Positions 15,115 through 42,291 of a stretch of 64,000 bases of DNA are shown here, one piece after another. The stretch comes from Eledone cirrhosa. Lineage: Eukaryota. Position 1 is the first letter of the stretch. The number at the start of each line of letters is the position of its first letter. The position numbers and the translations under genes were made by a program. The stretch lies in contig OZ024742.1 in NCBI GenBank assembly GCA_964016885.1, positions 23,932,001 through 23,996,000 on the forward strand. Direction: 5' to 3'. The notes beneath the pieces were generated by a model. It had not been told where the DNA came from. It saw only the letters and a list, made by a program, of their open reading frames with translations, and ran no database searches.

Positions 15115-15426
15115 ATGTTTGTGTGTATGTGTGTATATATATATATATATATGCGTATGTGTGTATATATATGTGTATATATATATATGTATAGAGTTGA
15201 GAAATAGCCGTCGAAACGGCTTGAGCCCTGCCGTTGGGGTCATACTTTTTCTTATATATATATATAATGTATAATAAACAATACAATATAATTACCTCAT
15301 TACCAAAGGTTTCCCGAATAAGACGAATACGAGAAACGTGCTCATTCGTTCGTCAGACAAGGCAATTTAAAACATAGTGAAATATTTGAAAAATCTCCTC
15401 AAGAAAGGCAAAAGTTTAACGGGCAA

Positions 15427-15458
<32 letters not shown>

Positions 15459-16009
15459 AAGTAATGCAAGAGATATATACAAATAAAATAAGGAAATATA
15501 GTAAGGGTATGTGTATAAATGTGTGTATATGCACCTACAAATGTACATATGTGTATATGTTCAAATACATGTGTATAGTGAAAAAATGTGTGCGTAAGTA
15601 CATACATTAGGGCAAGCATATCAGTGTATGTGTGACCACAAATACGTATATAATATATGTTGAAAAAAAGAAATTGTAAGATAATAGAGTTAGCGTACAC
15701 ACAGACTCAGGTACTCAGGATTGAAATATATACACATACAAGTACGAAAGCACGCGTATAAACACACACGCGCAACCACATACATACATGTGATATATAC
15801 AGGGAAAGGCGTGTATCAGTCAAAGAAGTGTCAGGCTGAAGGTCGATGCATATATAAAAATATAAAATATGAAATGAAAAAATGAAAAAAATATATGAGA
15901 ATAAAAAAATTAAATCCAAGAGAATGTAAGAGGGAGGGGTTATCAATTATAAAGTAACACTAGAAAAAATAGGAAACATACCCAACAATACTAACTCCTT
16001 TAAACATAA

Positions 16010-16699
16010 TAGGAAAAGAAAAATAATCTGGTTCACACCCCTACTCTTTAGCAGTTAAATCTAATGTAGGCAAAAATTTACCAGAGCTCTTAGATAAACA
16101 TTTCCTTAGAACACATAGATACTATAAGATCTTCAATAGAAACTGTGTCAAAATCAGCTACTCTTGCGGTCTCCCTATTATATCTTATATCCTAATAAGA
16201 AAATACCCAGAGAAGATCAAAATTGCTCCTGTAGAGTCAAAAGTGAATGCCACTACAAGGTAAATGCAACACCAAAACCATTGTATACGCGGCTAAAGTG
16301 ACAACCACCAGCAACAACCTACCAGCCACCAGCGAACGGTATGTGGGCATGACACAAGACAAATTCAAAACGCGTTATTACTCATATGTCGCATCTTTCC
16401 GACATCCTGAAAAAAGATTTACAACAGCTCTGGCTAGCAGAATATGGGATTTGAAAGACCAAGGTATCCATTATGAATTAGATTAGTCAATTTTGAACCA
16501 ATCTAAAGAATATGCAAGAGGAACAAGAAGATGCGCACTCTGCATAAGTGAAAAATATTGGATTTTACAAAACATTAAATCACCAAAAACCTGCCTAAAT
16601 GCAAAAACAGAAATTTTCACCAGTTGCCCACACATGAAATTACACTTGGTTTCCAGCTCATATAAACTTAACTCACTTTCAGATACTTATCCTCAATAA
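16010..16699 (+). pseudogene. PLE linker and GIY-YIG endonuclease remnant (frameshifts and stops)
   Basis: IIWFTP...KIFNRNCVKISYSC...NCSCRVKSEC.LQGKC...IVYAAKV...YVGMT...KTRY...CALCISEK...LNAKTEIFTSCPH. Confidence 0.85.
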
Positions 16700-17910
16700 A
16701 CTCTTGTTCTTCACTTTCCTTAACTTACGTTCTTTACAGACTTCTCTTTCTGATTTACTTTTAATTTTAACTTTATTTTTACTTCACATCCACCATTGAA
16801 GCCCCCCCCCCTGCTTTTTTATTTACTTTATATCTTCACAATTTTAAATATTTTACTTCCCCCTTTTCTTTCACTACCTGATATGACATGTCACTTGCGT
16901 TTTCAACACCAGATATATTCTATTTTCCCTCAGCCGCTTTTATGTATGATTACTTGCGTAAAATTTGTACTCATTTATTCATACGGCTGGTTTTTATATT
17001 GTATGTATGCGTGTAAGTGTGCATATGTGTGTATACGTGTTTGTATATGTATATGAATGCATTCGTATGTGCGCGTGTATTTGTATTTGTATTTGTATAT
17101 GTGTGTGTGTATGTGTGTTATTATATGTATGTTTTTTACACACTTATATATATGTGTGTGTGTATATGTATATATATATATATGTGTGTGTGCTTCGTGT
17201 GTATGTATGCGCGCTTTTGTATGTATGTACGCATGTATGTGCTTTTGTCTGTACGTATTTATATATATATTTATATATATATGTGTGTGTACGAACCTCT
17301 GAATGTTTTCTATTTTTTCTAGTGTTACTTCATAATTGATAACCCCTCCCACTTACTTTCTCTTGGATTTAAATTTTTTTATTCTCATATATTTATTCAT
17401 TTTTTCATTTCATATTTTATATTTTTATATATGTATTGACCTTCAGCCTGACACTGTTTTGACTGATACACTCCCTTCCCTGTATATATCACATACATGT
17501 ATGTGGTTGGGCGTATGTGTGTGTTTATACGCGTGCTTTCATACTTGTATGTGTATATATTTTAATCCTTACTCCCTTAGTCTGTATGTACGCTAACTCT
17601 ATTATCTTACAATTTCTTTTTTCAACATATATTATATACGTATTTGTGGTCACACATACACTGATATGCTTGCCGTAATGTATGTACTTACGCACACATT
17701 TTTTCACTATACACATGTATTTGTACATACACACATATGTACATTTATAGGTGCGTATACACACATTTATACACATACCCTTACTATATTTTCTTATTTT
17801 ATTTGTATATATCTCTTGCATTACTTTTATTTATATATATATATATTTTTTTTTTTTTGGCCCGTTAAACTTTTGCCTTTCTTGAGGATACTTTTCACTA
17901 TGTTTTAAAT

Positions 17911-17982
17911 TGCCTTGTCTGACGAACGAATGAGGACGTTTCTCGTATTCGTCTTATTGGGGAAACCTTTGGTAATGAGGTA
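17911..17982 (+). ncRNA. Type I hammerhead in the PLE 3' repeat (inverted copy 15293-15364)
   Basis: tgccttgt-CTGACGA-acgaat...-GAAA-cc ttt gg-TA-atgaggta. Confidence 0.8.
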
Positions 17983-18076
17983 ATTATATTGTATTGTTTA
18001 TTATACATTAGATTTAGCTCTGTAACTTACATAGAGCACTCTTTACTCGTATGATTTTTTCAATTTTCAACGAAAC

Positions 18077-18186
<110 letters not shown>

Positions 18187-18506
18187 TATATATACACATA
18201 TATATATATATTAGAGAGAGAAATCACAAGAATCAAAGCTATTTTCTAGGCATTTATTCACTTACAATTGTTTCATCCAAACCTAGGCTAAGAGTCTTCG
18301 GAGAATTTTTTAATGTTTGTACATATATATTATACTATACTAATTTGTATAGCAATTCAAATTTAAAATCAAAATTAAAATAGATTGCTATACAAATATA
18401 GTATAATATAATATATGTCACTCCACTGTACATCAATATATATATATGTATCTGCATGTCTCTTGCGTTGGATATGAGGTCAATTATATGTACAGACATT
18501 AAAAAA

Positions 18507-18553
18507 TGCTCCGAAGACTCAAAGCCTAGGTTTGGATGAAACAATTGTAAGTG
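18507..18553 (+). ncRNA. Hammerhead with U4C core (copies 18259-18304 minus, 24784-24830 plus)
   Basis: tgct-CCGAAGA-ctc(c)aagc ctag gtttggat-GAAA-caattg-TA-agtg, then aataaa. Confidence 0.7.
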
Positions 18554-18722
18554 AATAAATGCTTTGAACATAGCTTTGATTCTTGTGAATTCTATATAAC
18601 TGCACTATAGAACAACTGATGTTCTTACATTGAGCTATTTATCTTACTGGTAATAAGGTAGTAATAAATTACTGGCCTTCCCTGTTTATAGATTAAAATA
18701 TACATAACTATAAATAGTATCC

Positions 18723-18762
<40 letters not shown>

Positions 18763-18881
18763 TAGTAATAATAATAAATTTGAAGACTAAAATATGTCTA
18801 CGACTTCTTTATTGATTCCATAAACGCGGTTTTGTCTGCGTGTAATTGATTTTCACCGCTCCAAATAATGACATATTATAT

Positions 18882-19005
18882 TACGATCTGAGTTCAAATC
18901 CCGCCGAGGTTGACTTTGCCTTTCATCCTTACGGGGCCGATAAATTAAAGTACCGGTAATGCACTGGGTAATTGGTGGCCTTGTGCCTAAAGTAGAAACA
19001 ATTAT
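18882..19005 (+). mobile_element. 5'-truncated tRNA-derived SINE inserted in an HHR-family element (18820-19168)
   Basis: B box gagttcaaatcc; attatatt duplicated on both sides; the empty site is visible near 41177. Confidence 0.8.
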
Positions 19006-19287
19006 ATTCGTTTTTTCCCATTCTTTGCCAGGAAACGTTTCCACGAACCAAAGTATCGTCTTCCTGTCTTACTCCGGTTGCAACGTTTTTTGAAATATTC
19101 ACTTCTGCCTTTACAGATTGACTTTGTTAGTTTCATAAGATCCCGTTAAGGGTGAAAGCAGCGATTCTTATATATATTTTATATATTCTATATATATTTT
19201 AATACATATATATATATATACACGCACATACACATATATATACATATACACAGACATACACATATATACATATATATATATACATAT

Positions 19288-19329
<42 letters not shown>

Positions 19330-19938
19330 GTATATATATATATATACATACACACATACATACACATACACATATATATGTATATATACACACACATACA
19401 TATATATTTATGTGTTTTAACTATCCCAACAAGTATTAATCTGAGTTTGATCATTTATGCATAAACATACTTCATACTATTTTAGAGCGTATCATATGCT
19501 ATATTATACTAAGTGCAATTTACTACACCGTACTATATTGTGTTTGTTAAGTTGTATATTATCCATTACTGCATTTCATTATCTTATTATAATTTTCATC
19601 TTTTAATATACTTTCTTTCCTAGCCATAACTTTAATTTATATTCATCTTAAAACTCAATACAACACTAATCACCATTTATTTTGACATTCCTTTTAAATT
19701 CACTATACCAGATACATTCAACTATCAGTTTGAGAATCCCTTTCCTCCTAATAGATTTTTGTGCCAAGTCTACTATCAACACCCTTCAACCATTCATTTC
19801 AAAGGGTCATGACCTCAACTAAAGTGTATTACTTTTCATCTTAACACCATATGAAAAAAAAATTTGATTCGTTAGTTCTTCAACAACCTCCAAATAAGGA
19901 CATGATACTAACATACTACTAATTCTGAATAAAATTAT

Positions 19939-20080
19939 TATTGCTTTTGAAAACAGCTGGTGATATGCATGTAAGTAAATATTCTCTTTATCTGATAGTT
20001 TGTAACTAACCTTACATAGAGCAATAACTGAGTATAGCTACAATGTATTATCACCATATAGAAACGATCGTAAAGCAGTG
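19939..20080 (+). ncRNA. Hammerhead with U3-A8 core and long stem II
   Basis: tattgctt-TTGAAAA-cagc tggtgatatgcat...atgtattatcacca tata-GAAA-cgatcg-TA-aagcagtg. Confidence 0.75.
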
Positions 20081-20256
20081 AAGTATATCTCTAATGACTT
20101 GATTTTTTATTTCATTGTTTTAACTTATATCATGACTCTGTTTTCCTTTTAATGTTTTATTGTTTGCCGAGATTTATCTTAACCTTCAACATTTTCAACA
20201 TATGGATTACATCGAGTTCTTCATGCAGAATAGACCCCACAACTTACTGTAGATAC

Positions 20257-20313
<57 letters not shown>

Positions 20314-20683
20314 CATACATACACACACACATACATACACACATACACATACAAATATAAATACATATACATACACACATACATACATGTGTACATATAT
20401 ATACATATATATACACATATACACATATACATATATGCATACATACACAAATATATACATATATAACTATATATATATATCTATATATATATATGTGTAT
20501 ATATATCTATATATCTATATACCTATATATATATATATACATGTATATATATATTTACATATATATATATATATATGTACATATACAAACACACATATAT
20601 ATATATATATACATACACACACACATACATACATACATACAAATATACATACATATACATACACACATACATACATGTGTACA

Positions 20684-20715
<32 letters not shown>

Positions 20716-20935
20716 CATACGCACATACATATATACATATGCATACATACACAAATATATACATCTATATTCTGAGTCCAGAATTAGCCGTCGAAACGGC
20801 TTGAGCTCTGTCGTCGGGATCCTACTTGTTCCTATATATATACATATATATATAGAAAGAGAGAGAGAGATACATATAAATATGTATGATGTATGTATAT
20901 ATATATATATGTATGTATATATATATATATATGTA

Positions 20936-21031
<96 letters not shown>

Positions 21032-21205
21032 TGTTTGTATGTATATATGCAGATATAGAGAGACACACGTATACAGTAAAATAGCAATCATGATTAGAAT
21101 ATTGAGAGGTAATTTAAATAAAAAATATGTTGATATTATGAAAAGAGTTGATAGAAAAATAAATTTAATTTGATAATTGCTTTCTCTTGACTGATTGTTG
21201 TAACA

Positions 21206-21279
<74 letters not shown>

Positions 21280-21280
<1 letters not shown>

Positions 21281-22098
21281 TGTGTGTATCAGTACAAGAG
21301 AGCGTATGCTGGTGTCTGTATGAGAGTGTTTGTGAGCATGAATATGTGTGAGTGTCGCTGTGTGAGAGTGTACGTGAGCATTTGTGTGTGTGTGAGTATC
21401 AGTGTATGCGAGTGTGTGTGAGCATGTGTGTGTGGGTGTGTGTGTGTGAGAGACTGTGTATCAGTGTATGAGAGTGTGTGTGAGCATGTGTGTGTGTGAG
21501 CCTGTGTATCAGTGTATGAGAGTGTGTGTGAGCATGTGTGTGTGTGAGCCTGTGTATCTGTGTATGAGAGTGTGTGTGAGCATGTGTATCAGTGTATGAG
21601 AGTGTGTGTGAGCATGTGTGTGTGTGAGCCTGTGTATCAGCGTATGAGAGTGTGTGAGCATGTGTGTGTGTGAGCCTTTGTATCAGAGTATGAGAGTGTG
21701 TGTGAGCATGTGTGTGTGTGTGTGTGAGACTGTGTATCAGTGTATGAGAGTGTGTGTGAGCATGTGTGTGTGTGTGTGTGTGAGCCTGTGTATCAGTGTA
21801 TGAGAGTGTGTGTGAGCATGTGTGTGTGTGTGTGTGAGCCTGTGTATCAGTATATCAGAGTGTATGTGAGCATGTGTGTGTGTGAGCCTGTGTATCATTG
21901 TATGAGAGTGTGTGTGAGCATGTGTGTGTGTGAGCCTGTGTATCAGTGTATGAGAGTATGTGTGAGCATGTGTATGTGTGAGTTTGTGTGTATCAGTGTA
22001 TGAGAGTGTATGTGAGCATGTGTGTGCGTGTGAGTGTCGCTGTGGGAGAGTGTACGTGAGCATATGTGTGTGTGTGTATCAGTGTATGCGAGTGTGTG
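21280..22098. repeat. GT-rich minisatellite, ~45-55-bp unit
   Basis: tgtgtatcagtgtatgagagtgtgtgtgagcatgtgtgtgtgtgagcc repeated about 15 times. Confidence 0.9.
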
Positions 22099-22609
22099 TT
22101 GGTGGTGGTGGTAGTGGTGGTGGCAGTGGTGGTGGTGGTGGCTGTGGTGGTGGTGGTGGTGTTAGTGGTGATCCTTGTGTTGTTAATAGTGGTGGTGGTG
22201 ATGTTATAGATGTTAGCTGTGGTGGCAGTGGTACTAGTGTTGTTAGTATTGGAATATTTGTTTGGTTTTGTTGTTGCTATTGTTGGTGAGGTTCCCATTA
22301 TGCTATTGCTGTTAATGATGGCGATGGTGGGAGTTTTGCTTTTTCTATGTTTTCTTGTTGTTGTTCTTGGCGGTGATAGAAGAAGAAAGAGAGGATCAAC
22401 AACAACAATATTAACCAATATCTCAACAAAAACGATATATTTATATATATATATATATATCAACATAAAATGTACGCAATGCAGATGTTGGGTAGACAAG
22501 AGATGTAGTGGGATATCAGGCAAACTAACAGGTAGGGAAACTACGTATGCAGTAGAGGTACAGTGAAAGTTGGCAGTAGTAATCGCAGTGATTGACACAT
22601 TTTTCCAAT

Positions 22610-23250
22610 GCAGGTGGTCTTTATAGAAGAGGTTGATAGCTTCCGGTACCTAGGTGATTAAATTAGCATGGGAGGTGGTGTTCCGAGGCCATAGTATCTA
22701 GAATTAGGACGGGTTGGAAGACGTTTAGGGAGCTGCTTCATCTGTTGACAAAGAAGGGTTTCTACCTGCGTACGAAAGGACGGTTACATGATGCCTCTTT
22801 GAGATGCGCGATGCTGCATGGTAGTGAGACATGGGCAGCAACTGCAGAGGATATGCGACGGCTGGAGAGAAATGAAGCAAGCATGCTCCGTTGGATGTGC
22901 AATGTCAATGTGCGTGAACGACCAAGTATAGACGAGTTGAGAAAGAAACTGGGTATAAGAGGGATAAGTTGTGGTGTGCAGGTGAGAACACATGTGATGC
23001 GCATGGAGTATGCCCGCTGGGTTAAGAAGTGCCAAGAAATCCCAGTAGAAGGAATACGCAGTAGAGGTAGACGACGAAAAACATGGGTGGAGGTGGTGAG
23101 AGCAGACCTCAGATCGCTGAAACTCACGGTGGAGATGACGAAGGACTGTGACAAGTGTAGAGATGCTGTGTTGAATAGGACCCAATCCACCCTTGCAAGC
23201 AGGTAAAAGCGGACGTAAAATGATGAGGATGATGATGATGATGATGATGA
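22610..23250 (+). mobile_element. RTE-clade LINE 3' end with (GAT)n tail
   Basis: EEVDSFRYLG...KGRLHDA...AMLHGSETWA...LERNEASMLRWMC...RGRRRKTW. Confidence 0.9.
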
Positions 23251-24270
23251 TCAACAGTCCATTGGCTTTCGTCAAATCGGACCGAGGAAACAATGTTTTC
23301 ATTGGTCTTTCCAATTGCTAATATTATCTATCGGTCCCAAATCCAGGTAGAAGGAGCAATGTGAAATAAAGTCTCTTGCCCAAAGACATAACACATCGCT
23401 TAGTCCGGGAATGAAACTCACAATCTCACGAATGCGAATTCAATTCTCTAAAGAAGAAAAAAAAAATGATTTTACATAGAAGCATTGAACTTCTATTATA
23501 CTGTGACATATTGGTTCCAACTTTATTTATTTCACCACTTACCTGGGCACTGTCACCCATAATGCAGAGGAGGTAAAGGTAACCACTTCCTTTTTCTGTC
23601 TGTGTTCTCAATGGTGAACAACTACTACCTTTTCCTACCAGACACCGCCAAGATTTCTATTGTTTTTGGTCTGTAAGTTGCTGTTTTCCACCACAAAATG
23701 AAATGAAGTTTATCTCACTTAAGGAAGGAACCCCATTAGGTAGAATAGATGACTTTGCAGATGTTGTTTATTCTCTGCAGCAATACATTTACCATCTTGT
23801 TTGCAGAGTGCAGTAGAGATACACCACACAGCTCACTCCTTCCCTTTTCGTTCCCGTCTTTCCTTTATGTAATCTTAACATTTTTCCTTTTTTTTTCTCT
23901 CTTCCCATTTACTATCTTAATTCTTTACTTTTAATACTTTCATCACTGTCTACATCTGTTCAACAATAAATTCGCTTTTTATTCATTTGGCAATGAATAA
24001 GACGATTGTAGATTGAATAGATAGAGGTATTATAATTTAGCATGGAATAGAAAGATGTTAAAGATTGTACACATTCATTAGTTGTAGATCTCAATAATGT
24101 CAATGTTAAATAATGTTAAAGTCTCTAAAGAACTTGTAGGTTTCTTGAAGATCCTGTCAATGATAATATTGATTGCTTAAATATACTCACAATAATTATA
24201 TCCTAATTAAGATTATCAAAATATGCATCACTGCTGTTGCTACAGCATTATATATATATATATGTATATA

Positions 24271-24634
24271 TATTAGTAAAAAGGAAAAGAAAATGCTGAC
24301 AAATGTTTCCCAGTGAAAATTAGTTTAATTAGGAATAAGTATAAATTAGTAATAAGTATTAGCTAGTATTCAGTTTTAGTTTTAAGTTTTTACCGGTTGC
24401 GCATTTCTTATGCTTTTCAAAAATAATTTTGAGATAGAGTGCGATTAGAGCGAAAATCACGAGCACTCTATCTCAAAATTATTTTTGAAAAGCATAGGAA
24501 ATGCGCAACCGGTAAAAACTTAAAACTAAAACTGAATACTAACTAATACTTATTACTAATTTATACTTATTCCTAATTAAACTATTTTTCACTGGGAAAA
24601 ATTTGTCAGCATTTTCTTTTCCTTTTTACTAATA
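24271..24634. repeat. Palindrome with ~170-bp arms, each with a U3-A8 hammerhead-like motif (24388-24423 minus, 24482-24517 plus)
   Basis: ttt-TTGAAAA-gcat aggaa atgc-GCAA-ccgg-TA-aaa. Confidence 0.8.
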
Positions 24635-24870
24635 CATCACAACACGCGTGTCAAACCTCTATTTTTTTTAAAATATATATATATCTCGTTAAGGATGAAA
24701 GCAGCGATTCTTTGTTTAAACTTAATAAATATATATATCTTGCGTTGGAAAGGAGGTCAATCATGCGTACAAACATTGAAAAATGCTTCGAAGACTCCAA
24801 GCCTAGGTTTGGATGAAACAATTGTAAGTGAATAAATGCTTTGAATATAGCTTTGATTCTTGTGAATTCT

Positions 24871-24934
<64 letters not shown>

Positions 24935-25150
24935 CATCATCATCATCATCATCCTTATCATCTTCGTTTAACGTCCATCTTCCACGCTAGCATGTGTTAG
25001 ATGAGAGTTGTCCCACTTGAGGCAAGGTTGGTCGAGTGAACGTGTCTCGCTCATGTAGGACTATCTGGCAGGTTTTCTATGGCTGGATGCCCTTCCTAAC
25101 ACCAACCTCATTTACAGTATGGACTGGGAACTTTTTACCGTATTACCTTC
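24935..25150 (-). mobile_element. RTE-tailed non-autonomous repeat (related pieces 8735-8870, 46740-47030)
   Basis: (CAT)n-gtttaacgtcc...ggctggatgcccttcctaac. Confidence 0.6.
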
Positions 25151-25249
25151 ACGGCCACATTACAGCGTGGACTGTGTGTTTTTTTTTTTTGTTCTGGGTC
25201 TACCTACTCAGGGTCTACCTACTCCGTAACTTCCATCAATTTTGATCGC

Positions 25250-25565
25250 CCTGTACTTTTGTTATACAGCTGTCGTCTTTCATGCGCATCACGTGACCAT
25301 ACCAACGTAGTCTTCTCTAAAGTAAACAGCATCTGATCCCTCTTATTCCTAATTTCTCACTTAGTTCATTTATGCTTTGCGGTTCATGTATGTTACTATT
25401 ACACATCCAACGGAGCATGCATGCTTCGTTCCTTTCCAGTCTGCGCAGGTCCTCTGCACGCAATGCCCACGTTTCACTGCCATGTAGCATTGCTGTTCGT
25501 ATACAGGCATCAAACAATCTGCCTTTCACTTTTAAAAAGAGATAAACCTTTTGTGGCCAACAGCG
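25250..25565 (-). mobile_element. RTE LINE RT-thumb fragment
   Basis: KVKGRLFDACIRTAMLHGSETWAL...LRWMC. Confidence 0.85.
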
Positions 25566-26259
25566 ATATATATATATATATGTATATGATGGCTGCAAAC
25601 TCTGCTAAGAGTATTGCAATCACTTGTCAGATTATAGAGTTTGGTGCACTTTTAGGCTAAGCTCAAGCACACTACATTGTAACATACACTAAAAAGGCAA
25701 TGCCTGTGCATTGAAGGTTTGTTTAGGTGGGGAAAGGCCTTGTACTCCACCATTCCTACTTTCTGAGCATCGAAACACTACCCAAAAAGGAGCTATGATC
25801 AACATCATATGATGCCTTGGAAGCCGCAGGGTTTTTTTTCAGTATTCCTCTCTCCTAGAAAGATATTGAGACAACAACTGAGGGCCTATCACTCCCAGAT
25901 AGAAAAAGAAAAACAAAAGAAAACGAATATACGGATGGCTGTTGGCTCTGCTAAGTTCCATCGACCTTTCCCGGGTCTTGTATTTCATCCTACAGGATGT
26001 CCAAGTATCACTCTCCTCGCCAAGCTAGCTTGGTAGAGTTGCAAGTTTAGTTGCCGACGACCGGACCATGAGACAGGTTGTACTGGGTTACATGTTACCA
26101 GTAGCACTAAAGAGTGATCTGACATATATATATATATATGTATATTCATTAGTTAAGCAAAACAAGACCACAAATTTCACAAGGAATCATTATTAAAAGA
26201 TTGTCAACATATTTTAGTTTGATGTAAGGAATGTAGAGAATAATAATAATAATATTAAT

Positions 26260-26452
26260 AATAATTGTTTCTACTTTTGGCACAAGGCCATCAATTACCC
26301 AGTACATTACTGGTACTTTATTTTATCGACTCCGTAAGGATGAAAGGCAAAGTTAACCTCGGCGGAATTTGAACTCAGATCCTAAAGGGACGTAACTTTA
26401 TGCTTCAAAACATGGTCTCCGACTCTCTACCGATACTGCCAATCCACCGTCC
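26260..26452 (-). mobile_element. Full-length tRNA-derived SINE with ~16-bp TSD, inside the PLE repeat
   Basis: A box tggcagtatcgg, B box gagttcaaattc; aataatattaataata on both sides. Confidence 0.85.
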
Positions 26453-26477
26453 AATAATATTAATAATACTAATGTCC

Positions 26478-26596
26478 GTTTACAATTGTTTCGCTACCCC
26501 ATATAATATTTCTGGATCAAATGATTATAGATAATTATTGATCTGGTTCAGTTGAAAATAATTAACATAGGTAAAAATAGAGCAGCTCATCGGAAC
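26478..26596 (-). ncRNA. Hammerhead with U4C core and ~95-nt stem II region (inverted copy 29001-29119)
   Basis: gtt-CCGATGA-gctgctc...gggtagc-GAAA-caattg-TA-aac. Confidence 0.7.
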
Positions 26597-26989
26597 TTCA
26601 AAAGGAATATAAATTAAAATAAGGAAAGAATGTTACATAAATGTAACGTTCCATATATTGGTATTTCACTATGGTGTCCTGTGTATATCAATATTCTGCC
26701 ATAGTCGAGCAGTATTCTTCTGTCGAGGCTGCATTGTGTGAGATCTGCCTATGGGTAACAAGATGGCCGTCAATGGACATATTTACCTTACTAATTAGAG
26801 GGTGGTTTCAAGGGAAGTAACTCCTCGAGAGATTAGAAATTGTGGGTAATTTATAGTTAAGTGCTAATTTTTTAATGTTTTAATTGAGAAACAATGTAAG
26901 GGAGGTAACTTATAATTATCTAAGTTAGTTATAACTATTTAACTTATTAGCTACAAGTAAAAATGAGGCTAGATGACTATGTTGGGTCA

Positions 26990-28998
26990 AATATTATGTT
27001 TGCGAAGGAATTAGCCCTTCGATGTTGACAGCTAATAGTTACCTCCGTTCTATCGTTAATCGGTAGAGGTCGTGATAGAGTTATGTAATATGCTTCGGTA
27101 AGACAGAGGTCACAACATTTTCTTCGTCCATTGAACGGTTGGGCCCTAGCCAAGATATCCTATGTTAGTGAGTATTCAATGTTGGTTAATTTAAGGTTTT
27201 TAATGAGACTAGCTAGAGATGTCGAACATCTGTTGTTAGGGTCTCGGAAGGAAAAAGAGTGCACGTTATAGTGTACCTGAAAATGATTAGAGGTAGACCT
27301 GATATAGGAGCTGGTATGCGAAGCAGTTTTAACCGTGCACCTATAAACTATATTGGGTGTCGGGCAATGTCCATTTAGTGGGCATGCATTAGGGTAGCGG
27401 CAGTTGCAGTTACTTCTGCGATTAATGAGAGTAGGCTTGTTTAACCTAAGTGGTTCGTCCGTGCTAGAAGGATTAGATGGGGGAGGTGTGCTACTAGAGT
27501 AAGTATTGGTGTAGTGGCGTGGTGTATTTGATGGGGGTGGTGGTACCGCGTTGTGGGAGTTATACTGTCTTAGTTTATGATGGTTACTGAATGCGATGTG
27601 GCTAGCTAGGTTAGGTGTTGTGGAGATGAGATTTTAATGTTATTTTTATTAAAGAGTTTGTCATATCTATGGTGGCGGGGGGGGACATGTTTAGATAGGA
27701 TAGAGAAGAAGCGTTTAGGGATATTAGTGGCTAGATTAGATGAGAATGAGAGGTTAAGCCAGGTGCTATTTCTAGGCCTATTCCTTCTAGAGGTTCTAGT
27801 GGAGTTGGTAGGGGCCTTCATGGGCTTATTATTACCTGGGCAGTTATTATTTGTCATCCCATTGCTCATTCCTATTCTAGGGTTGATTTTTAGTTTGCTA
27901 CTTGGAGTGGGAAGCAGGCCACTGCCACCATTAAGGTTCCCTGTATAGGTGCTGTTACTGCTAAAATTCCGGCGAATTTGGCTATATGCTAAGGTATTTC
28001 TAGTTCTAGTGTTAAGTTCATTATGGTTGTGGTGAATTGCTGTGTTATGGCATTTAGGTATGTAGTAAATGGACTGTTCATAACCATATTCAAAAAGAGT
28101 CTTATTATAATATGCCGCATGGTTTATAAATATCTCCTCATTTGCTGATAGCATGGAGATCCTATACGAGATAGATTTGATTACTGCTCTGATGATTACC
28201 GGTGGGTGGTTAGAGTGCGGGCTAATATATGTAAGTATTTCACATGGTTTATGATACGTGTAATATAGGTTATTGTTAAGATCCAGGGTAACGTCTAGGA
28301 AGTTTACTACTTTATGGTTCGGCTCGATGGTGATAGAGAGACAGTTATTTTTAAAAAAATCTATGTAATTGTTTTTGAGAAAGTCAATGCCTCGATTAGT
28401 GCAATTGTGGACTGCAAATATGGCGTCGTCCCTCTATATTCCGCCTTGCAAGGGTTGGATTTCGGCTCTGATGTTATGTAATAGGTAAATTCCAACTAAA
28501 TCGGTGATTTGCGCAGAGTCAGTTGAGCCCATCGTGATGTCAAAGTTGTCTGTTCTGTCTTTTCTAGTCCAGAGTGCTCCGTTGAATTCAATGATGGTCT
28601 TCCTAGCCATAAGTATGATGTCAATCTCATTATTGGTTATGTCAGAGTTGGTGCTGGCTAGGGTTAATGCTTTGTTGAGCAGTTCCGGGGTTATTGAAGT
28701 GTAATAGCTGTCAATGTCAAATTGGATGAACCTCATAGATTCCTTGGACCTTAGATCGGAGAACCATCTAATGACTTGGCCGGTGTTGGACCACATCTTG
28801 TAGGTGATATCATCCCGTAGCCCAGGGATGATCCTGTCAAGGATGTTCTTACTGATACGACCCAAGTCGGATGTGGTTGGGCTTATAACTCTAATAGATG
28901 GGTTCTCTATAAAGTTTGGCTTGTGTTCCTTGAGAGAGAACCTTGGAGTTGTAGGTACACAAGGGTGGGTAAATCTATCCAGATGCAAGTCCTTAACC
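26990..28998 (-). pseudogene. PLE reverse transcriptase plus C-terminal GIY-YIG endonuclease (disrupted)
   Basis: LKEHKPNF..NPSIRVISP; FIQFDIDSYYTSI; FDITMGSTDSAQITDLVG; GI*RDD (YRDD with a stop); VNFLDVTLDL; CNCRYPNACPLNGHC..IVY; YIRSTS; CDLCLTE. Confidence 0.9.
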
Positions 28999-29405
28999 AA
29001 GTTCCGATGAACTGCTCTATTTTTACCTATGTTAATTATTTTCAACTGAACCAGATCAATAATGATCTATGATCATTTGATCCAGAAATATGATATGGAG
29101 TAGCGAAACAATTGTAAACGGACATTATTAATATTAATATTATTATTATTCTCTACAATCCTTACATCAAACTAAAATATTTTGACAATCTTTTAATAAT
29201 GTCTTCCTTCTGTGGTCTTGTTTTGCTTAACTAATAAATATTTCCAGCTCTGTGCACCTAACCTCTGCATGACCCCAGCCACCTAGCTGATTTCCACTGC
29301 ATATTGCACATTGTGCACATGCCTTTACGTTTTGGCTTCTAACTAATTCACCAATCTCTCCTCTCCTATCTCCATCTCTCTCTTTAAGATTGGTTACTCT
29401 TAAAC

Positions 29406-29473
<68 letters not shown>

Positions 29474-29530
29474 TGTATATATATATATATTTATATATAT
29501 ATATATATATGTATATAGATATGTATATAA

Positions 29531-29604
<74 letters not shown>

Positions 29605-29610
29605 GTATAT

Positions 29611-29681
<71 letters not shown>

Positions 29682-30583
29682 TATGTATGTATATGATGGC
29701 TGCGCCCTCCTTATTGAGTATGGCCATTGCACGATATACCATTATTAATAATTATTAATTAATTCTATCGTGCAATGCCTGTGCGTCAAGATATTTTTTA
29801 AAGTGAGGAAAGACTGTGCACTGAGCCAATCCCACTCTCTGTGCGACAGTAGCTGTAACCCGAAAAGAAGAAAAGATCAACATCATCGGTAACTACTGAG
29901 CCGCAGTTTTTATATCGGAGTTATCCCAGTTTCATCAGTCGGCTTCTCCTAGAAGAATGCCCTGACAAAGGCTAGGAGTCCTTTACTCCCAGTGGTTTAA
30001 CCGCGCGATCGGGTGTCCAGCCCGACTATTTCTATGTCCCCGCGCATATACATACATATATACATGTATATATACATATTTACATACTTTTGGATGGCCG
30101 TTGACTCTTATGAGTTCTTCCGCCCTTTGTCTGGTTTTGATTTTTGTCCTGCAGGGTGTCCAAAATCACCCTCCTCACCAAGTAAACTTGGTAGGATTGC
30201 CGGTTTAGTCGCCGACGATCCAACCATGCGACAGGTTGTACTGGGTTACATCTTACCAGTAGTACTCAAGAGTGAACCGACATATATATATGCATACATA
30301 GATACATATACATACGTATATATATATATATATGTATGTATATGTATCATTTCTGATTTTTGCGTTTCGCTTCGCTTTTCCTGCCCGCCGAAAATGCGAT
30401 TCTTGCTGAATCTTTATTTGTATATATATATATTTATTTATTAAAATAACAGAATAAAATTTAAGCAAATAATCACTGCTTTCACCCTTAACGGGATCTT
30501 CTGCTCTACGGTTCGTATATATTTGATATTTATTTATCCTTATCGAGCCCTCATTGGATTTTAGTCTTCAAATTTATTGTTAT

Positions 30584-30650
<67 letters not shown>

Positions 30651-30654
30651 CCAA

Positions 30655-31330
30655 AGATTAATATGGTTCATTGATTACTCAATGAATATAGTTTTACAAT
30701 AGATTAAAAGCACTCAACAGTGACGTTTTCTGGAGTTATTAATATTATTCAAAATATTAATAAATGAAGACGTTCACATAATCAAAATATATGTTTTATT
30801 ATATATATTTCTTAGGTACTGTGCTGTTTTTTCAGTACGTCCTCATCAGCTAAAATATATGAAATGATGTATGACATACCTCAACTGTCTTGATGGTTCA
30901 ATTCCAGTATTGGCCGTGATTTATTACAACAAATCTCAATATTTATATACACAAATAATAACATGATAAACTTAAATATGATGAAATAGAGGATGTGGAG
31001 TGATATATAAGTATAAGGCGGGGGTGAGTATGAGAAAATGTAAGAAGAAATAAATAAACACATACGTACATAAATATTTAAATATTTAAATGCGTAAATA
31101 TCTGTGTTAGGGAAGAAAAGGAAGAGAGAGAGAGATAGAAGAGAAGAAAGAAGAAGAGAGAAAAAAGAAGGAGAGAGAGAGATAGAAGAGAGAAGATGGA
31201 ATACCTAACTGCAAAAAGGAAAGAATTAAAGAAAGAAAGAAAGAAAGAAGAAAGGGACATGATGCGTGACCGTTGTTTTTAAATATTAAGTCAAATAGAA
31301 GCGACCAATTAAATACCATGAAATTTTTAA
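30655..31330 (-). mobile_element. HHR-bearing repeat (second copy 54640-55212)
   Basis: Two similar copies, each starting at a (TA)n tract. Confidence 0.75.
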
Positions 31331-32214
31331 TATCTTTTGTATTTGGTTATGTTCGAGCTAATTATACTAATATATTATATCAAAATTAAACAATATAAAA
31401 ATATTTTCTATAATAATCAGAAGCATAGTTTAATTAATAAATATATTCAATATGTTGTTACAAAATTCAAACATCAAAAACATGTTTGCCTACCAAGCAA
31501 GTTTACAAACATATTAAATATGTATAAGGATATTTACCACAACTTATTCGCATATCACCATCAGTATATGCATTTTATATAATTATTATCTGAATTATTC
31601 TTTTTACATTATAAACAGTTGTCATTTACTTATAAGATTAATAAATAGTTATATTTACTCTTGAAAGTATTATTATTTAGATTTTAATTCCGTAACTATA
31701 TCATAATATTATAATATATGTAGTTTCCCTTTAAGGATTAATATTATAAATCATGTTAAATATACATTATTAATCTATTTGGATAGAACGAAAATTATAT
31801 ACGAAGACTGTAAACAAAGGAAGGTAATCCATGTGTGATCATTTACATTAACTAAGTGCTTTGAAAGCCAGAAATATTTCAAACCGCAAATTCAGAAAAT
31901 TCTAGTTATACAATGACCATTCTAAAACCGAACTTAGGATACTGAGTCACATCATGAGATTAATTTACATTATTAAAAAACTGATATACAATGTTTAAGG
32001 TAAAGCAAAACATTATATATATAATAATAATAATAATATTTCAAGAATTATGAATAATAGTCAATATTTTTTTCCTTCAGTATTTTTTCTAAATTAGATG
32101 CTCAAAATGTCTTTTCAGAATTATGGAGACAAGTTGCACATAATTCGTTCTTTTTATTAATTAAATTACCATAATTGGTAATTATTAAAGCACTTAGTTA
32201 ATATAAATTTACCA

Positions 32215-32462
32215 CATTCTGAGAAGTGGTATAAGCATAAGCCAGAGTCAGTGATAGAAAACGATCAGGTGAAGGTGCTATGGGATTTTAGCATAAAGAC
32301 GGACAAGAAATTAGAACACAATAGGCCTGACCTGGTGGTTTTGGACAAGGAAAAAAAGATTGTGCAGGATTGTAGATGTGGCCTGCCCATTTGACACGAG
32401 CGTGCAAGAAAAGGAAAGGGAGAAAATTAACCGATACCAGGACTTAAAGTGGGAGGTAAAAA
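32215..32462 (+). mobile_element. R4/Dong-like REL endonuclease fragment
   Basis: EKWYKHKPESVIENDQVKVLWDFSIKTDKKLEHNRPDLVV...IVDVACPFD...EKINRYQDLKWEV. Confidence 0.85.
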
Positions 32463-32464
32463 AT

Positions 32465-33608
32465 TCAGGATTTGCGAACCATAAATGCTCTTTCTCGAAC
32501 TCCAAGAGGAAATCATCCACGTCTTTATCACAGCTCATATGGTCAAAGAGAGGAATTTAAAATACTCCATTCTTTGGACTAAACTTCGGAACTGTGGAGT
32601 TTACCGCAACTCCAGTATATCAAATAACTGCGCGCTCTGTACAATGGAGACCCTGTTGATTATTAATAACTATGAAACCCTAATTAACAAAAAAAGTGAA
32701 TTATTCTCTAGTTGCCTCCATAAAGCTACGTCCACACTATTAGCCTCCCATAAAACGAGAATAAAAGAGAGAGAAGCACTTAACCATTAAAAACCTGGTT
32801 GTCAGACGTATATAATCAACAGGGGAAAACATTAATGGCCTTTAATATTGCATTATCTTATAACTATCTATAGAAGAAATAACGCTCGAATGAAAGACAC
32901 TTGTTCAATAACATCCTATCTAAGTTTTAAGTTTTAGTTTAATATCCAACCCATACATTTTTATGGAACTTATTTCTAACTGTGAATCTTTCATGTGTTT
33001 TTGATTATTATTTATTTCGAACTATGAATAATTAATGCATTTACACCCTGTTATATTTAGGTATATATTTAACTTTAGCATGCCTCAATCTTTTTGTTAT
33101 CATTTACCTAAAATATACTGGCTCATTAATAAATATCTATATACATAATCGTTATTTAAATATTTCTAACAATAAGTACTTCATAAGATTTACATACCAT
33201 ATATGTAGACAATGATTAACTTCGGTAAAGTTTACATTTAGGAAAATATTCAACAGTGTAAACTTTCTTTGCTTTTCTTATATATATATATATATGTATT
33301 TAACTATAACACGTTCGAAATTTATTATATAAAATTATAACCGTTATCATTTACCTAAAGTATACTGTATCAATAATATCTAATTTATATCAATAATACC
33401 TAATTTATATCCATATAAACTTCCATATATCTTTCTATACATAATTTTTAATTAACTTCTAAATTTATTGAGTATCATTTATTTCGAACTATGAATAATC
33501 AATGCATTTACACCCTGTTATATATAGGTATATATTTAACTTTAGCATGCCTCAATCTATTATTTTATTTTTAATTTCGTTATCATTTACTTAAAATATA
33601 CTGGCTCA

Positions 33609-33656
<48 letters not shown>

Positions 33657-33990
33657 TAATAGTTATTTAAATATTTCTAACAATAAGTACTTCATAAGAT
33701 TTACATACCATATATGTAGACAATGATTATCTTCGGTAAAGTTTACATTTAGGAAAATATTCGACAGTGTAAATTTTCCTTTCCGCTGGCCAGCTAAATC
33801 CTTTAAAAGTTATCCTCATAAAATTCCGAAGTTTAGAAATGTTAAAACACTTATAGAATTTACAAAACAAATAAATATAAATAACTATGGAAACATCTTG
33901 TTGAGTCAAACAAAGCCGTACGTTAAAACTATCCACGACGCAGAGAACCCACAACCTCTAACTGGATTACCTATAACAATAACTTGGTAT
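32465..33990 (+). mobile_element. PLE GIY-YIG C-terminus plus a 3' region with an internal duplication
   Basis: CALCTMETLLII...LINKKSELFSSCLHK; 33008-33265 is repeated at 33477-33780. Confidence 0.75.
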
Positions 33991-33991
33991 C

Positions 33992-34042
<51 letters not shown>

Positions 34043-34081
34043 GTATTTCCATAGAAAAGGTAAAGACATCCATATTAAATT

Positions 34082-34154
34082 TTCCTTTCCGATGAACGAG
34101 TTTGGACACCTATGTTGAGGTCGCCTGTCTTCGTGAAACCTTTGGTAAATGGAA
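34082..34154 (+). ncRNA. Hammerhead with U4C core
   Basis: ttccttt-CCGATGA-acgag...ttcgt-GAAA-cc ttt gg-TA-aatggaa. Confidence 0.75.
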
Positions 34155-34179
34155 CAATTGTATTGTGTTGTTCATTATA

Positions 34180-34274
<95 letters not shown>

Positions 34275-35119
34275 ATTTAAGCCTACATGACACATATCCA
34301 ATGCTGGAAGAAGTGATGTTTTATCGTCAGGAGGTGAATTCTTCATAAGATTATGGGACAAGGATTTGAGAAAGTCACCTGCATAGTCAATCAGATAATA
34401 CAGGGTGTTGAGATACACAATGACTGGCACAGTACAACCATTAATTGTTACAAGAGATAAAGCAATGTTCTAGAAAGGAGCAAGTTCTGAAAGTGAGATG
34501 AAGAGATCTACCACAACTAATTAGAGAAAGAATCAAATTATATGAGATGCAGTTTAGTTTTGGGCCAAGAAGGCCTCTCTTTAGTAAGACAACTACAACA
34601 GAAGACCTTAACTAAGAGTAAGCCTCTATATCTAGCTGTTGTTGATCTAAAGAAACCCTTTGACAGTTCAGGAATGTCCAGGAGACTGAAAGTGATGGTA
34701 GATGGATATATTTAGTAGACAGAAACTGCAGATTCTGTCAAATATATACATGTGAGGATCATCATCATCGCTATAATCATTGTCTTACATCAAATTGTTC
34801 ATGCTGTCATGTTGTACAGCTGGAAACCTTTCTTCATCGTAACTCTTATAGCCACTTCTTGCGACACACCAAAATATCGTGAACCTATTCTAAACTGGAT
34901 ACACATGAGTGTGTTTCTGTGTGTGGGGGGGGGGGGGGCGTGTGTGGTTATGTGTGTGTATGTGTGTCTTTGTGTGTGTTTATTTGGTGGAGGTTAACAG
35001 TTTGACCAAAAGAAGGTTGTAAAACGCCAGGCATGAAAAAATGTGTACAGTGACACAATAAAATAATATATACAGTAATAAATTAATTGAAAGATTAAAA
35101 ATATATATAAAAATAGGTT

Positions 35120-40851: not shown

Positions 40852-41465
40852 TATTTATTAAAATAACAGATTAAAGTTTAAGCAAAGAATCGCTGCTTTC
40901 ACTCTTAACGGGATCTTCTGAAACTAACAACGTCAATCCGTAAACGCAGAAGTGGATATTTCAAAAAACGTTGCAACCGGAGGAAGCCAGGAAGACGATA
41001 CTTTGGTTCGTGGAAACGTTCCCTGGCAAAGAACGGGAAAAAACGAATATAATACGTCATTAATAGGAACGGTGAAAAACAATTACGCGCAAAGACAGAA
41101 CCATGACCTCTTTTATACCATAAACGTGGTTCTGTCTTTGCGCGTAATTGTTTTTCACCGCTCCTATTAATGACCTATTATATTCGTTTTTTCCCGTTCT
41201 TTGCCAGCGAACGTTTCCACGAACCAAAGCATCGTCTTCCTGTCTTCCTCCGGTTGCAACGTTTTTTGAAATATCCACTTCTGCCTTTACAGATTGACTT
41301 TGTTAGTTTCAGAAGATCCCGTTAAGGTTGAAAGCAGCGATTCTTTGCTTAAACTTTAATCTGTTATTTTAATAAATATGTGCTCTACGGTTCTTATATA
41401 TTTGATATATATTTATCCTTATCGAGCCCTCTTTGGATTTTAGTCTTCAAATTTATTATTATTAC
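40852..41465. mobile_element. Head-to-head pair of an HHR family with U4A core (HHRs 40876-40924 minus, 41306-41354 plus; other copies 55589-55637, 19130, 30460-30502, tails at 8470-8545, 42100-42205, 55437-55565)
   Basis: gttt-CAGAAGA-tccc gttaa gggt-GAAA-gca...tgc-TT-aaac. Confidence 0.75.
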
Positions 41466-41725: not shown

Positions 41726-41869
41726 CATATACATACATATACATATATATATAGATATATATATACATATATATATATAAAATATACATATATATATATA
41801 TATATACATACATATATATATATATATACATACATATACACATATATATATATACATATATATATATAT

Positions 41870-42060
41870 AATAATTGTTTCTACTTTAGGCACAAGGCCA
41901 GCATTTACCCAGTATATTACTGGTACTTTATTTTCTCGACACCGTAAGTATGAAAGGCAAAGTTAACCTCGGCGGGATTTGAACTCAGACCGTAAAGGGA
42001 CGTAACTATGCTGGAAAGCATGGCGTCCGACTCTCTACCGATACTGCCAATCCACCGCCC
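41870..42060 (-). mobile_element. tRNA-derived SINE (further copies 42420-42612, 43458-43548, 48490-48675, 49040-49150)
   Basis: A/B boxes plus a conserved central domain gcctttcatccttacggggtcgataaaataaagtaccag (Nin/Deu-like) and an (ATT)n tail. Confidence 0.85.
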
Positions 42061-42291
42061 TTATATATATATAATAATATATATATATATATATAATAAT
42101 AAAAATAAATGTGAAGACTAAAATCCAAAGAGGGCTCAATAAGGATGCTGTTAATGGTGAAAGCAGCGATTATTTGCTTAAACTTTAATCTGTTATTTTA
42201 ATAAATATATATATATATATATTCCTATGTTCCAAGGCTCTGATACCATCAACACTATACACACAGAGCTGGCATATCTAAGAACTGACTA

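Follow-up and report, generated by a model that had tools for sequence, protein, structure and literature searches.

A largely inherited C4 core in hammerhead motifs of Penelope-like elements from Eledone cirrhosa

In a 64,000-nucleotide stretch of the Eledone cirrhosa genome (GenBank assembly GCA_964016885.1, contig OZ024742.1, positions 23,932,001 to 23,996,000 of the forward strand; hereafter the window, with positions counted from its first nucleotide), three families of hammerhead motifs, lettered A, B and C, carry C at core letter 4, normally U, in all six copies. Did this U4C change arise by decay after insertion or was it inherited, and if inherited, would the motifs still cleave? An earlier sequence-only reading of the window had proposed an inherited variant recurring in three independent families with intact stems. 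Here, we report that the feature is genuine and largely inherited, with fewer independent observations than had been claimed. The substitution itself is known and tolerated, and the setting is what is new: it occurs at the family level in animal Penelope-like elements (PLEs) and neighbors a family with A at the same position (U4A). Judging from sequence, we lean modestly toward U4C being an inherited, slower yet working variant in these families.

All six motifs were found again at the positions first given for them. Family A has the core CCGAAGA at 18511 (+) and 18301–18295 (−) and TCGAAGA at 24788 (+), and the core CCGATGA lies at 26593–26587 (−) and 29004 (+) in family B and at 34089 (+) in family C. 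In each motif, stem I is followed by the core, stem II, GAAA, a short stem III that is palindromic or nearly so (CAATTG in A and B, CCTTTGG in C), a GUA site and stem I again. Constrained folds and stem scores identified all six as type I hammerheads, with three stems round the core and open at stem I, weakly so in 18301. Stem I is bulged in A and B. C3, G5, A6, G8, A9, G12-A13-A14, A15.1-U16.1 and H17 are kept in five of the six copies, the exception being 24788, which has U3.

The C4 hammerhead motifs are genuine and far beyond chance. A stem-scored scan of the window, permitting one change in CUGANGA at a cut-off score of ≥22, returned 25 matches, comprising 16 canonical, five C4, two U3, one G3 and one A4 core. 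The reversed window gave one match, and eight block shuffles gave a mean of 0.75 with zero C4 cores. One of the five C4 matches, at 23282, lies at the threshold and was excluded from further counts. The window is 33% GC and rich in (TA)n. Rfam detected no hammerhead at the gathering score in 24600–34400 and none at E ≤ 10 in targeted scans around A (18215–18620), C or the U4A family (M, described below), the canonical copies not having been run separately as a positive control. An E-value scan of the whole window produced microsatellite-driven matches only among the 150 of 332 rows listed. Thus, no hammerhead was reported by Rfam in the window stretches tested, despite at least 33 copies in 17 groups.

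The claim that all stems are intact was not confirmed. Stem I of 18301 is just 2 bp long, its stem II is disrupted and its scan score is <20; 18511 has an A·G mismatch within stem II, 29004 an A10.1·C11.1 mismatch and 34089 a U·U mismatch in stem I. The best stem II among the copies belongs to 24788, which also bears a private C3U change in its core. Nor are the copies independent: one insertion supplies both 18301 and 18511 as its inverted arms, another, 5′-inverted, supplies 26593 and 29004, and the six motifs therefore amount to four insertions. The window copies are dead insertions with private mutations.

The motifs lie in the 3′ ends (pseudo-long terminal repeats, pLTRs) of PLEs, which belong to the Hydra clade where an open reading frame (ORF) survives. 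Location in a 3′ end or pLTR, with inverted or tandem insertions in (TA)n, was found for B and for a U4-bearing comparison family, D, and for C by nearness to an endonuclease fragment. Family B is a 5′-truncated, 5′-inverted element at 26142–29241 (−). A broken reverse transcriptase (RT) plus C-terminal GIY-YIG-type endonuclease ORF with a CxCX5C linker occupies 26998–28990 (−), with stops in both the RT and the endonuclease and a frameshift near 27630. One hammerhead stands at the 3′ end (26474–26607, −; C4 at 26592, a stem II of 94 nt that includes a long insertion, stem III CAATTG, GUA) and the other, with the mismatch noted above, in the inverted arm (28989–29123, +; core 29004–29010). The protein matched P0010 and P0013 by tblastn and BLASTP, and Pfam returned nothing significant for the three ORF pieces. 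The linker is visible in the translation, and the copy ends 5′ before the N-terminal RWK/DKT region; DKT is present in the closest homologue, P0010. Because a C-terminal endonuclease and a CxCX5C linker mark the Hydra clade (PMC8557442), family B is assigned to that clade from its translation, its RT being likened by eye to that of Hydra-1_Obim. The same endonuclease and linker rule out Naiad, a clade said to lack hammerheads. A high-copy SINE-like (short interspersed element-like) repeat of ~190–230 bp, which entered after the element landed, breaks the left arm at ~26266–26452 and occurs at many further sites, for example 41862–42079, 53111–53601 and 62435–62855.

Family C has a single copy in the window (34075–34158, +; core 34089–34095, stem III CCTTTGG, GUA), followed by (TA)n. 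A degenerate Hydra-type endonuclease fragment at 32465–32754 (+), 1.3 kb upstream of the hammerhead, probably belongs to the same element. At 33767–33785, within an internal duplication upstream of the hammerhead, the 5′ strand of C's stem I occurs again, together with CCG. Family D, one inverted insertion at 15259–18016 (+), holds Hydra-type ORF fragments at 15873–16675 and canonical CTGACGA hammerheads at 15356 (−) and 17919 (+). Family A shows the inverted layout and (TA)n tail without an ORF. Its first insertion, at 18219–18596, includes both arms: the left hammerhead (18250–18315, −; core 18301–18295) has degraded stems I and II, and the right one (18497–18563, +; core 18511–18517, stem III CAATTG, GUA at 18547–18549) has a C·U at the base of a palindromic stem II. 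The second insertion carries the hammerhead at 24774–24840 (+), followed by a (TA)n tail. Fragments at 22667–23206, 25240–25560, 45540–46049 and 51019–51660 resemble what we take to be ORFs of other non-LTR retrotransposons.

We then considered whether C4 was inherited, as the sequence-only reading had proposed in place of decay. This holds for family A, in which C4 is present in all three copies from both insertions, which are about 92% identical. For family B, which is high-copy, four runs were matched to 26453–27250 at 80% likeness. They contributed contigs (1679 and 39) and reads (9337 and 9035), the core bin being covered by ~240 and 146 reads. At fifteen sites the window copy differs privately, and these differences appear at ≥85% in X1, X6 and X7. 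The change 26592 G>A, which would give U4, is absent among the 40 listed difference rows (179 further rows exist), all 40 of which have a maximum share of ≥0.598 and none of which hits another core position. If the rows are ranked by share, as we infer, U4 stays under about 60% in every run, among them one labeled as a different species. Since private changes of the window copy surface at 85–100% and 26592 does not, the reads suggest that C4 in family B is inherited rather than private to this copy. At 26498 and 26533, pairing in stem II is restored by the letters of the family. Position 4 of family C is known from one copy, and its hammerhead look-alike D, with which it shares stem III and the tail, has U4. 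The C4 of family C could be private decay; it was probably carried by the family's master, and a rough posterior, with its prior drawn from the same window, makes a family-level trait highly probable.

A hand-picked tally extended the comparison to 33 hammerhead copies in 17 groups, both being minimum figures for the 64 kb. It leaves out 23282, with its threshold score, a match at 16136 antisense in D's ORF, two core-less stubs of family M and three CTGAGGA copies near 58–59 kb without a clear cleavage site. Position 4 is U in 13 groups, C in three and A in one (non-U in 4 of 17), and it is the sole core position with a change shared between insertions. Other core positions changed four times among the 33 copies (C3U twice, C3G and G5U), each in a single copy, a rate of 0.024 per site. 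At this rate, the probability that at least three of 17 groups would be U4C through private decay alone is about 0.002. Single-copy hammerheads at 12301 (+) and 61188 (−) have C3G and C3U cores, respectively, and represent private decay or further family variants. A young inverted and duplicated element at 57684–59758 (98–99% identical) holds CTGAGGA...GAAA at 59441, 58494 and 57971, again with no clear cleavage site.

The single A4 group, family M, is arguably more surprising than U4C. Its hammerhead-shaped motif at 41288–41366 (+) has the core CAGAAGA at 41310–41316 and an inverted arm at 40920 (−), and further insertions lie at 55593 (+), 30503 (−) and 19134 (+; also G5U, core CATAAGA). In total, the family left seven traces, five of them with the core, from four insertions, with core-less stubs near 24688 and 42150, and A4 is common to all four insertions. 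The motif is a complete type I shape with a bulged stem I, a U·U-based stem II like that of canonical group K, a CUU site and a stable stem III of 5 bp. When folded freely, it is unexceptional (z −1.3), and just one copy reached the scan threshold.

Family-wide C4 proves only that a master carried it and still amplified; the sequence-only reading went too far in equating inheritance with function. The master element of A, as the window shows, and that of B, as the reads indicate, already had C4 when they amplified, and that of C probably did too. In the reading we lean toward, the C4 motifs would still cut themselves at GUA, at a lower rate than U4 forms, and for this tandem copies in a precursor RNA would have to dimerise by way of the palindromic stem III. 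PLE hammerheads cleave slowly in vitro, and it has been proposed that they act as dimers on tandem precursor RNA (PMC4209133; PMC6765202); because they are slow anyway, a modest further loss from C4 would be tolerable. Stem III here is short, palindromic and unstable as a monomer, as in PLE hammerheads of the dimer type: ACAAUUGU, which is used in the dimer minimum free energy (MFE) fold of family B, and ACCUUUGGU gave no monomer fold and self-duplexes of −6.4 and −5.1 kcal/mol, respectively. The two motifs of one insertion cannot dimerise in cis, because inverted arms lie on opposite strands. In family A, stem II (18518–18537, 24795–24814) is a near-palindrome through which the predicted dimer pairs, and modeled monomers could exchange stem II as well as stem III. 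Elsewhere in the window, three identical hammerhead regions with canonical cores and 422-bp spacing (family E, 1472–2404) form a retrozyme-like tandem array, which could in principle dimerise in cis.

Among changes to the CUGA turn, U4C is the mildest; as the best-known tolerated natural core variant, it is less surprising than it would otherwise be. Natural CCGA cores cleave in peach latent mosaic viroid (PLMVd; cited in PMC3088659 and PMC9608096), where U4C lowers activity yet supports viroid infectivity (PMC3088659). CCGA recurs in a citrus-associated viroid-like RNA (PMC9608096), and the CCGA hammerhead of zeta virus ZV1 (−) cleaves in vitro at the expected site, as mapped by rapid amplification of cDNA ends (bioRxiv 2026.09.16.752053). 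PLMVd, CtaHVd-LR1, ZV1 and betaviroid-like RNAs share the same substitution, with self-cleavage reported as kept; however, they are circular RNA replicons, of type III where stated, whereas the motifs described here are DNA-encoded, dimer-type type I and family-level in animal retroelements.

Within PLEs, a core variant at the family level is already known. The U3-A8 minimal hammerhead ribozyme (min-HHR) of Schistosoma Cercyon PLEs (PMC4209133) is shared family-wide and missed by the standard descriptor, with ~1,300 matches; U3-A8 is a compensated pair swap, while the U-turn changes U4C and U4A go uncompensated. Hydra-clade hammerheads (Craig et al. 2021, PMC8557442, File S2) resemble ours in being type I in the 3′ end, with a near-palindromic stem III of 3–4 bp, a stem II often having a pyrimidine mismatch at its base, and (TA)n targets. 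They differ in that the 25 listed families (of 27) are all CUGA, in a search that required CUGANGA and was therefore biased toward U4. None of A, B and C matches the hammerhead of Hydra-1_Obim, although family B has the CxCX5C linker and an RT that, by eye, is clearly like that of Hydra-1_Obim. The 94-nt stem II of family B, which has a distal hairpin (26493–26586, −; 29011–29104, +), exceeds that of any Hydra hammerhead in File S2; long stems II also occur in U4 groups O (5218, 105 nt) and P (10573, 61 nt). In a metagenome search, six Hydra-type loci were recovered, and all three with a 3′ end bear a hammerhead-like motif with U4, the other three lacking a 3′ end or matching inside the ORF only. 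On these sequences, C4 does not appear to be general in the Hydra clade. Pattern matches in viral contigs to C4 and U4 cores with stem III CAATTG (46 and 86 stretches) are attributed to chance, because one of 132 passed a stem filter, a weak U4 case.

The literature surveyed, whose coverage is partial, contained no account of U4C or U4A at the family level in animal PLEs; Luense et al. 2017 could already describe C4 in PLEs. The 56-motif alignment file in the PMC4209133 supplement has two CCGA matches, both in flanks or stems, and in the Craig supplement (PMC8557442) no hammerhead context was seen at 20 of 69 CCGA places, the first five per term.

Several observations weigh against the reading we lean toward. 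The free MFE fold of every C4 copy lies 4.8–10.4 kcal/mol below its constrained hammerhead fold, the corresponding values for U4 copies being 0.3–8.8. The proximal stem I is 2–4 bp and stem III is of the dimer type here, whereas the active viroid-like C4 examples have stable stems. U4C is stated to considerably decrease activity in vitro (PMC3088659), and all single mutants of the CUGA region had low activity in one type III hammerhead (PMC9901934). A universal compensatory partner for C4 was sought among the families and not found, family A having A at N7 where B and C have U; an alternative CCGA/UUGG pairing is gained in family C only. No compensatory change after the acquisition of C4, and no covariation within the C4 families, was demonstrated. 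The amplification of the U4A family fits relaxed selection at least as well. Finally, the read bound for family B is loose, as U4 could reach about 60%, and it rests on the ranking given above with 179 rows unlisted.

The foremost competing explanation is that C4 was inherited but is catalytically irrelevant: cleavage would be dispensable, and masters with crippled cores, C4 or, in M, A4, would have amplified as frozen mutations. It is tenable, though less probable than slow cleavage. The A4 of all four M insertions speaks for it, U4A being reportedly inactive in PLMVd. The weak CUGA mutants and the missing covariation do so too, as do Naiad and most Chlamys PLEs, which still proliferate without canonical hammerheads (PMC8557442); the same work calls the function of PLE hammerheads unclear. 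However, position 4 alone shows changes in multiple insertions, and in three of its four cases the change is the known tolerated substitution, while the other core changes sit in single copies. The family B letters restore stem pairs, with the rest of its core not in the listed differences. Moreover, because C4-G5 is a CpG, mutation ought to drive it back toward U4 (observed/expected CpG ratio, 0.72).

A further question, compatible with either slow or dispensable cleavage, is how often C4 arose. Three independent families had been claimed; the sequences are indeed distinct, their separate origins less secure. Families B, C and D are distinct, as their endonucleases share only 28–35% identity (B versus C, 29% over 87 amino acids). 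Strong support is lacking for every branch of an 11-row endonuclease tree, and a B+C clade is not rejected (p-AU, the approximately unbiased test, 0.21), so independent C4 origins are unproven. One old origin, in a host-specific Hydra sublineage that passed C4 to A, B and C, is therefore possible but somewhat doubtful. The stem III CAATTG common to A and B agrees with it, but the U4 groups K and P have CAATTG too. The best tree needs two changes, albeit with weak support and long branches, the hammerhead of C is much nearer to the U4-bearing D than to B, and the endonucleases of B and C (28–29%) are no closer to each other than either is to D.

It is rather improbable that position 4 is effectively free in these PLEs, with U, C and A families all having amplified with the remaining core and stems kept, and with C4 dimers and the monomer-type A4 of M both cleaving at useful rates.

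Copy-specific decay, in which U4C arose case by case after insertion, is less probable still. The four changes at other core positions predict about 0.8 private position-4 changes among the 33 copies, all copies have other private damage, and C is single-copy with a U4 look-alike. Nevertheless, decay is excluded for A by the C4 common to its two separate insertions and is very unlikely for B, whose C4 behaves unlike the private changes of the window copy; for C, the rough posterior given above runs against it. Least credible of all is a regulated C4 whose transcript regains U4 function by C-to-U editing in the host or with the help of a protein cofactor: host factors have been suggested to be needed by PLE hammerheads (Cervera and De la Pena, PMC4209133), but edited RNA would be reverse-transcribed to U4 progeny, erasing C4 from the family, and A4 would be left unexplained.

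Descriptors demanding CUGANGA and short stems undercount motifs such as these. If position 4 were free, the hammerhead consensus would widen, searches anchored on CUGA would overlook roughly one in four PLE ribozyme families (here, 4 of 17 groups), and some PLEs now scored as ribozyme-less would possibly be among those missed. High-copy C4 and A4 families beside U4 families in one genome constitute a natural experiment on whether PLE hammerheads need to cleave, in which kinetics combined with copy-level conservation could separate a slow but needed ribozyme from a dispensable one.

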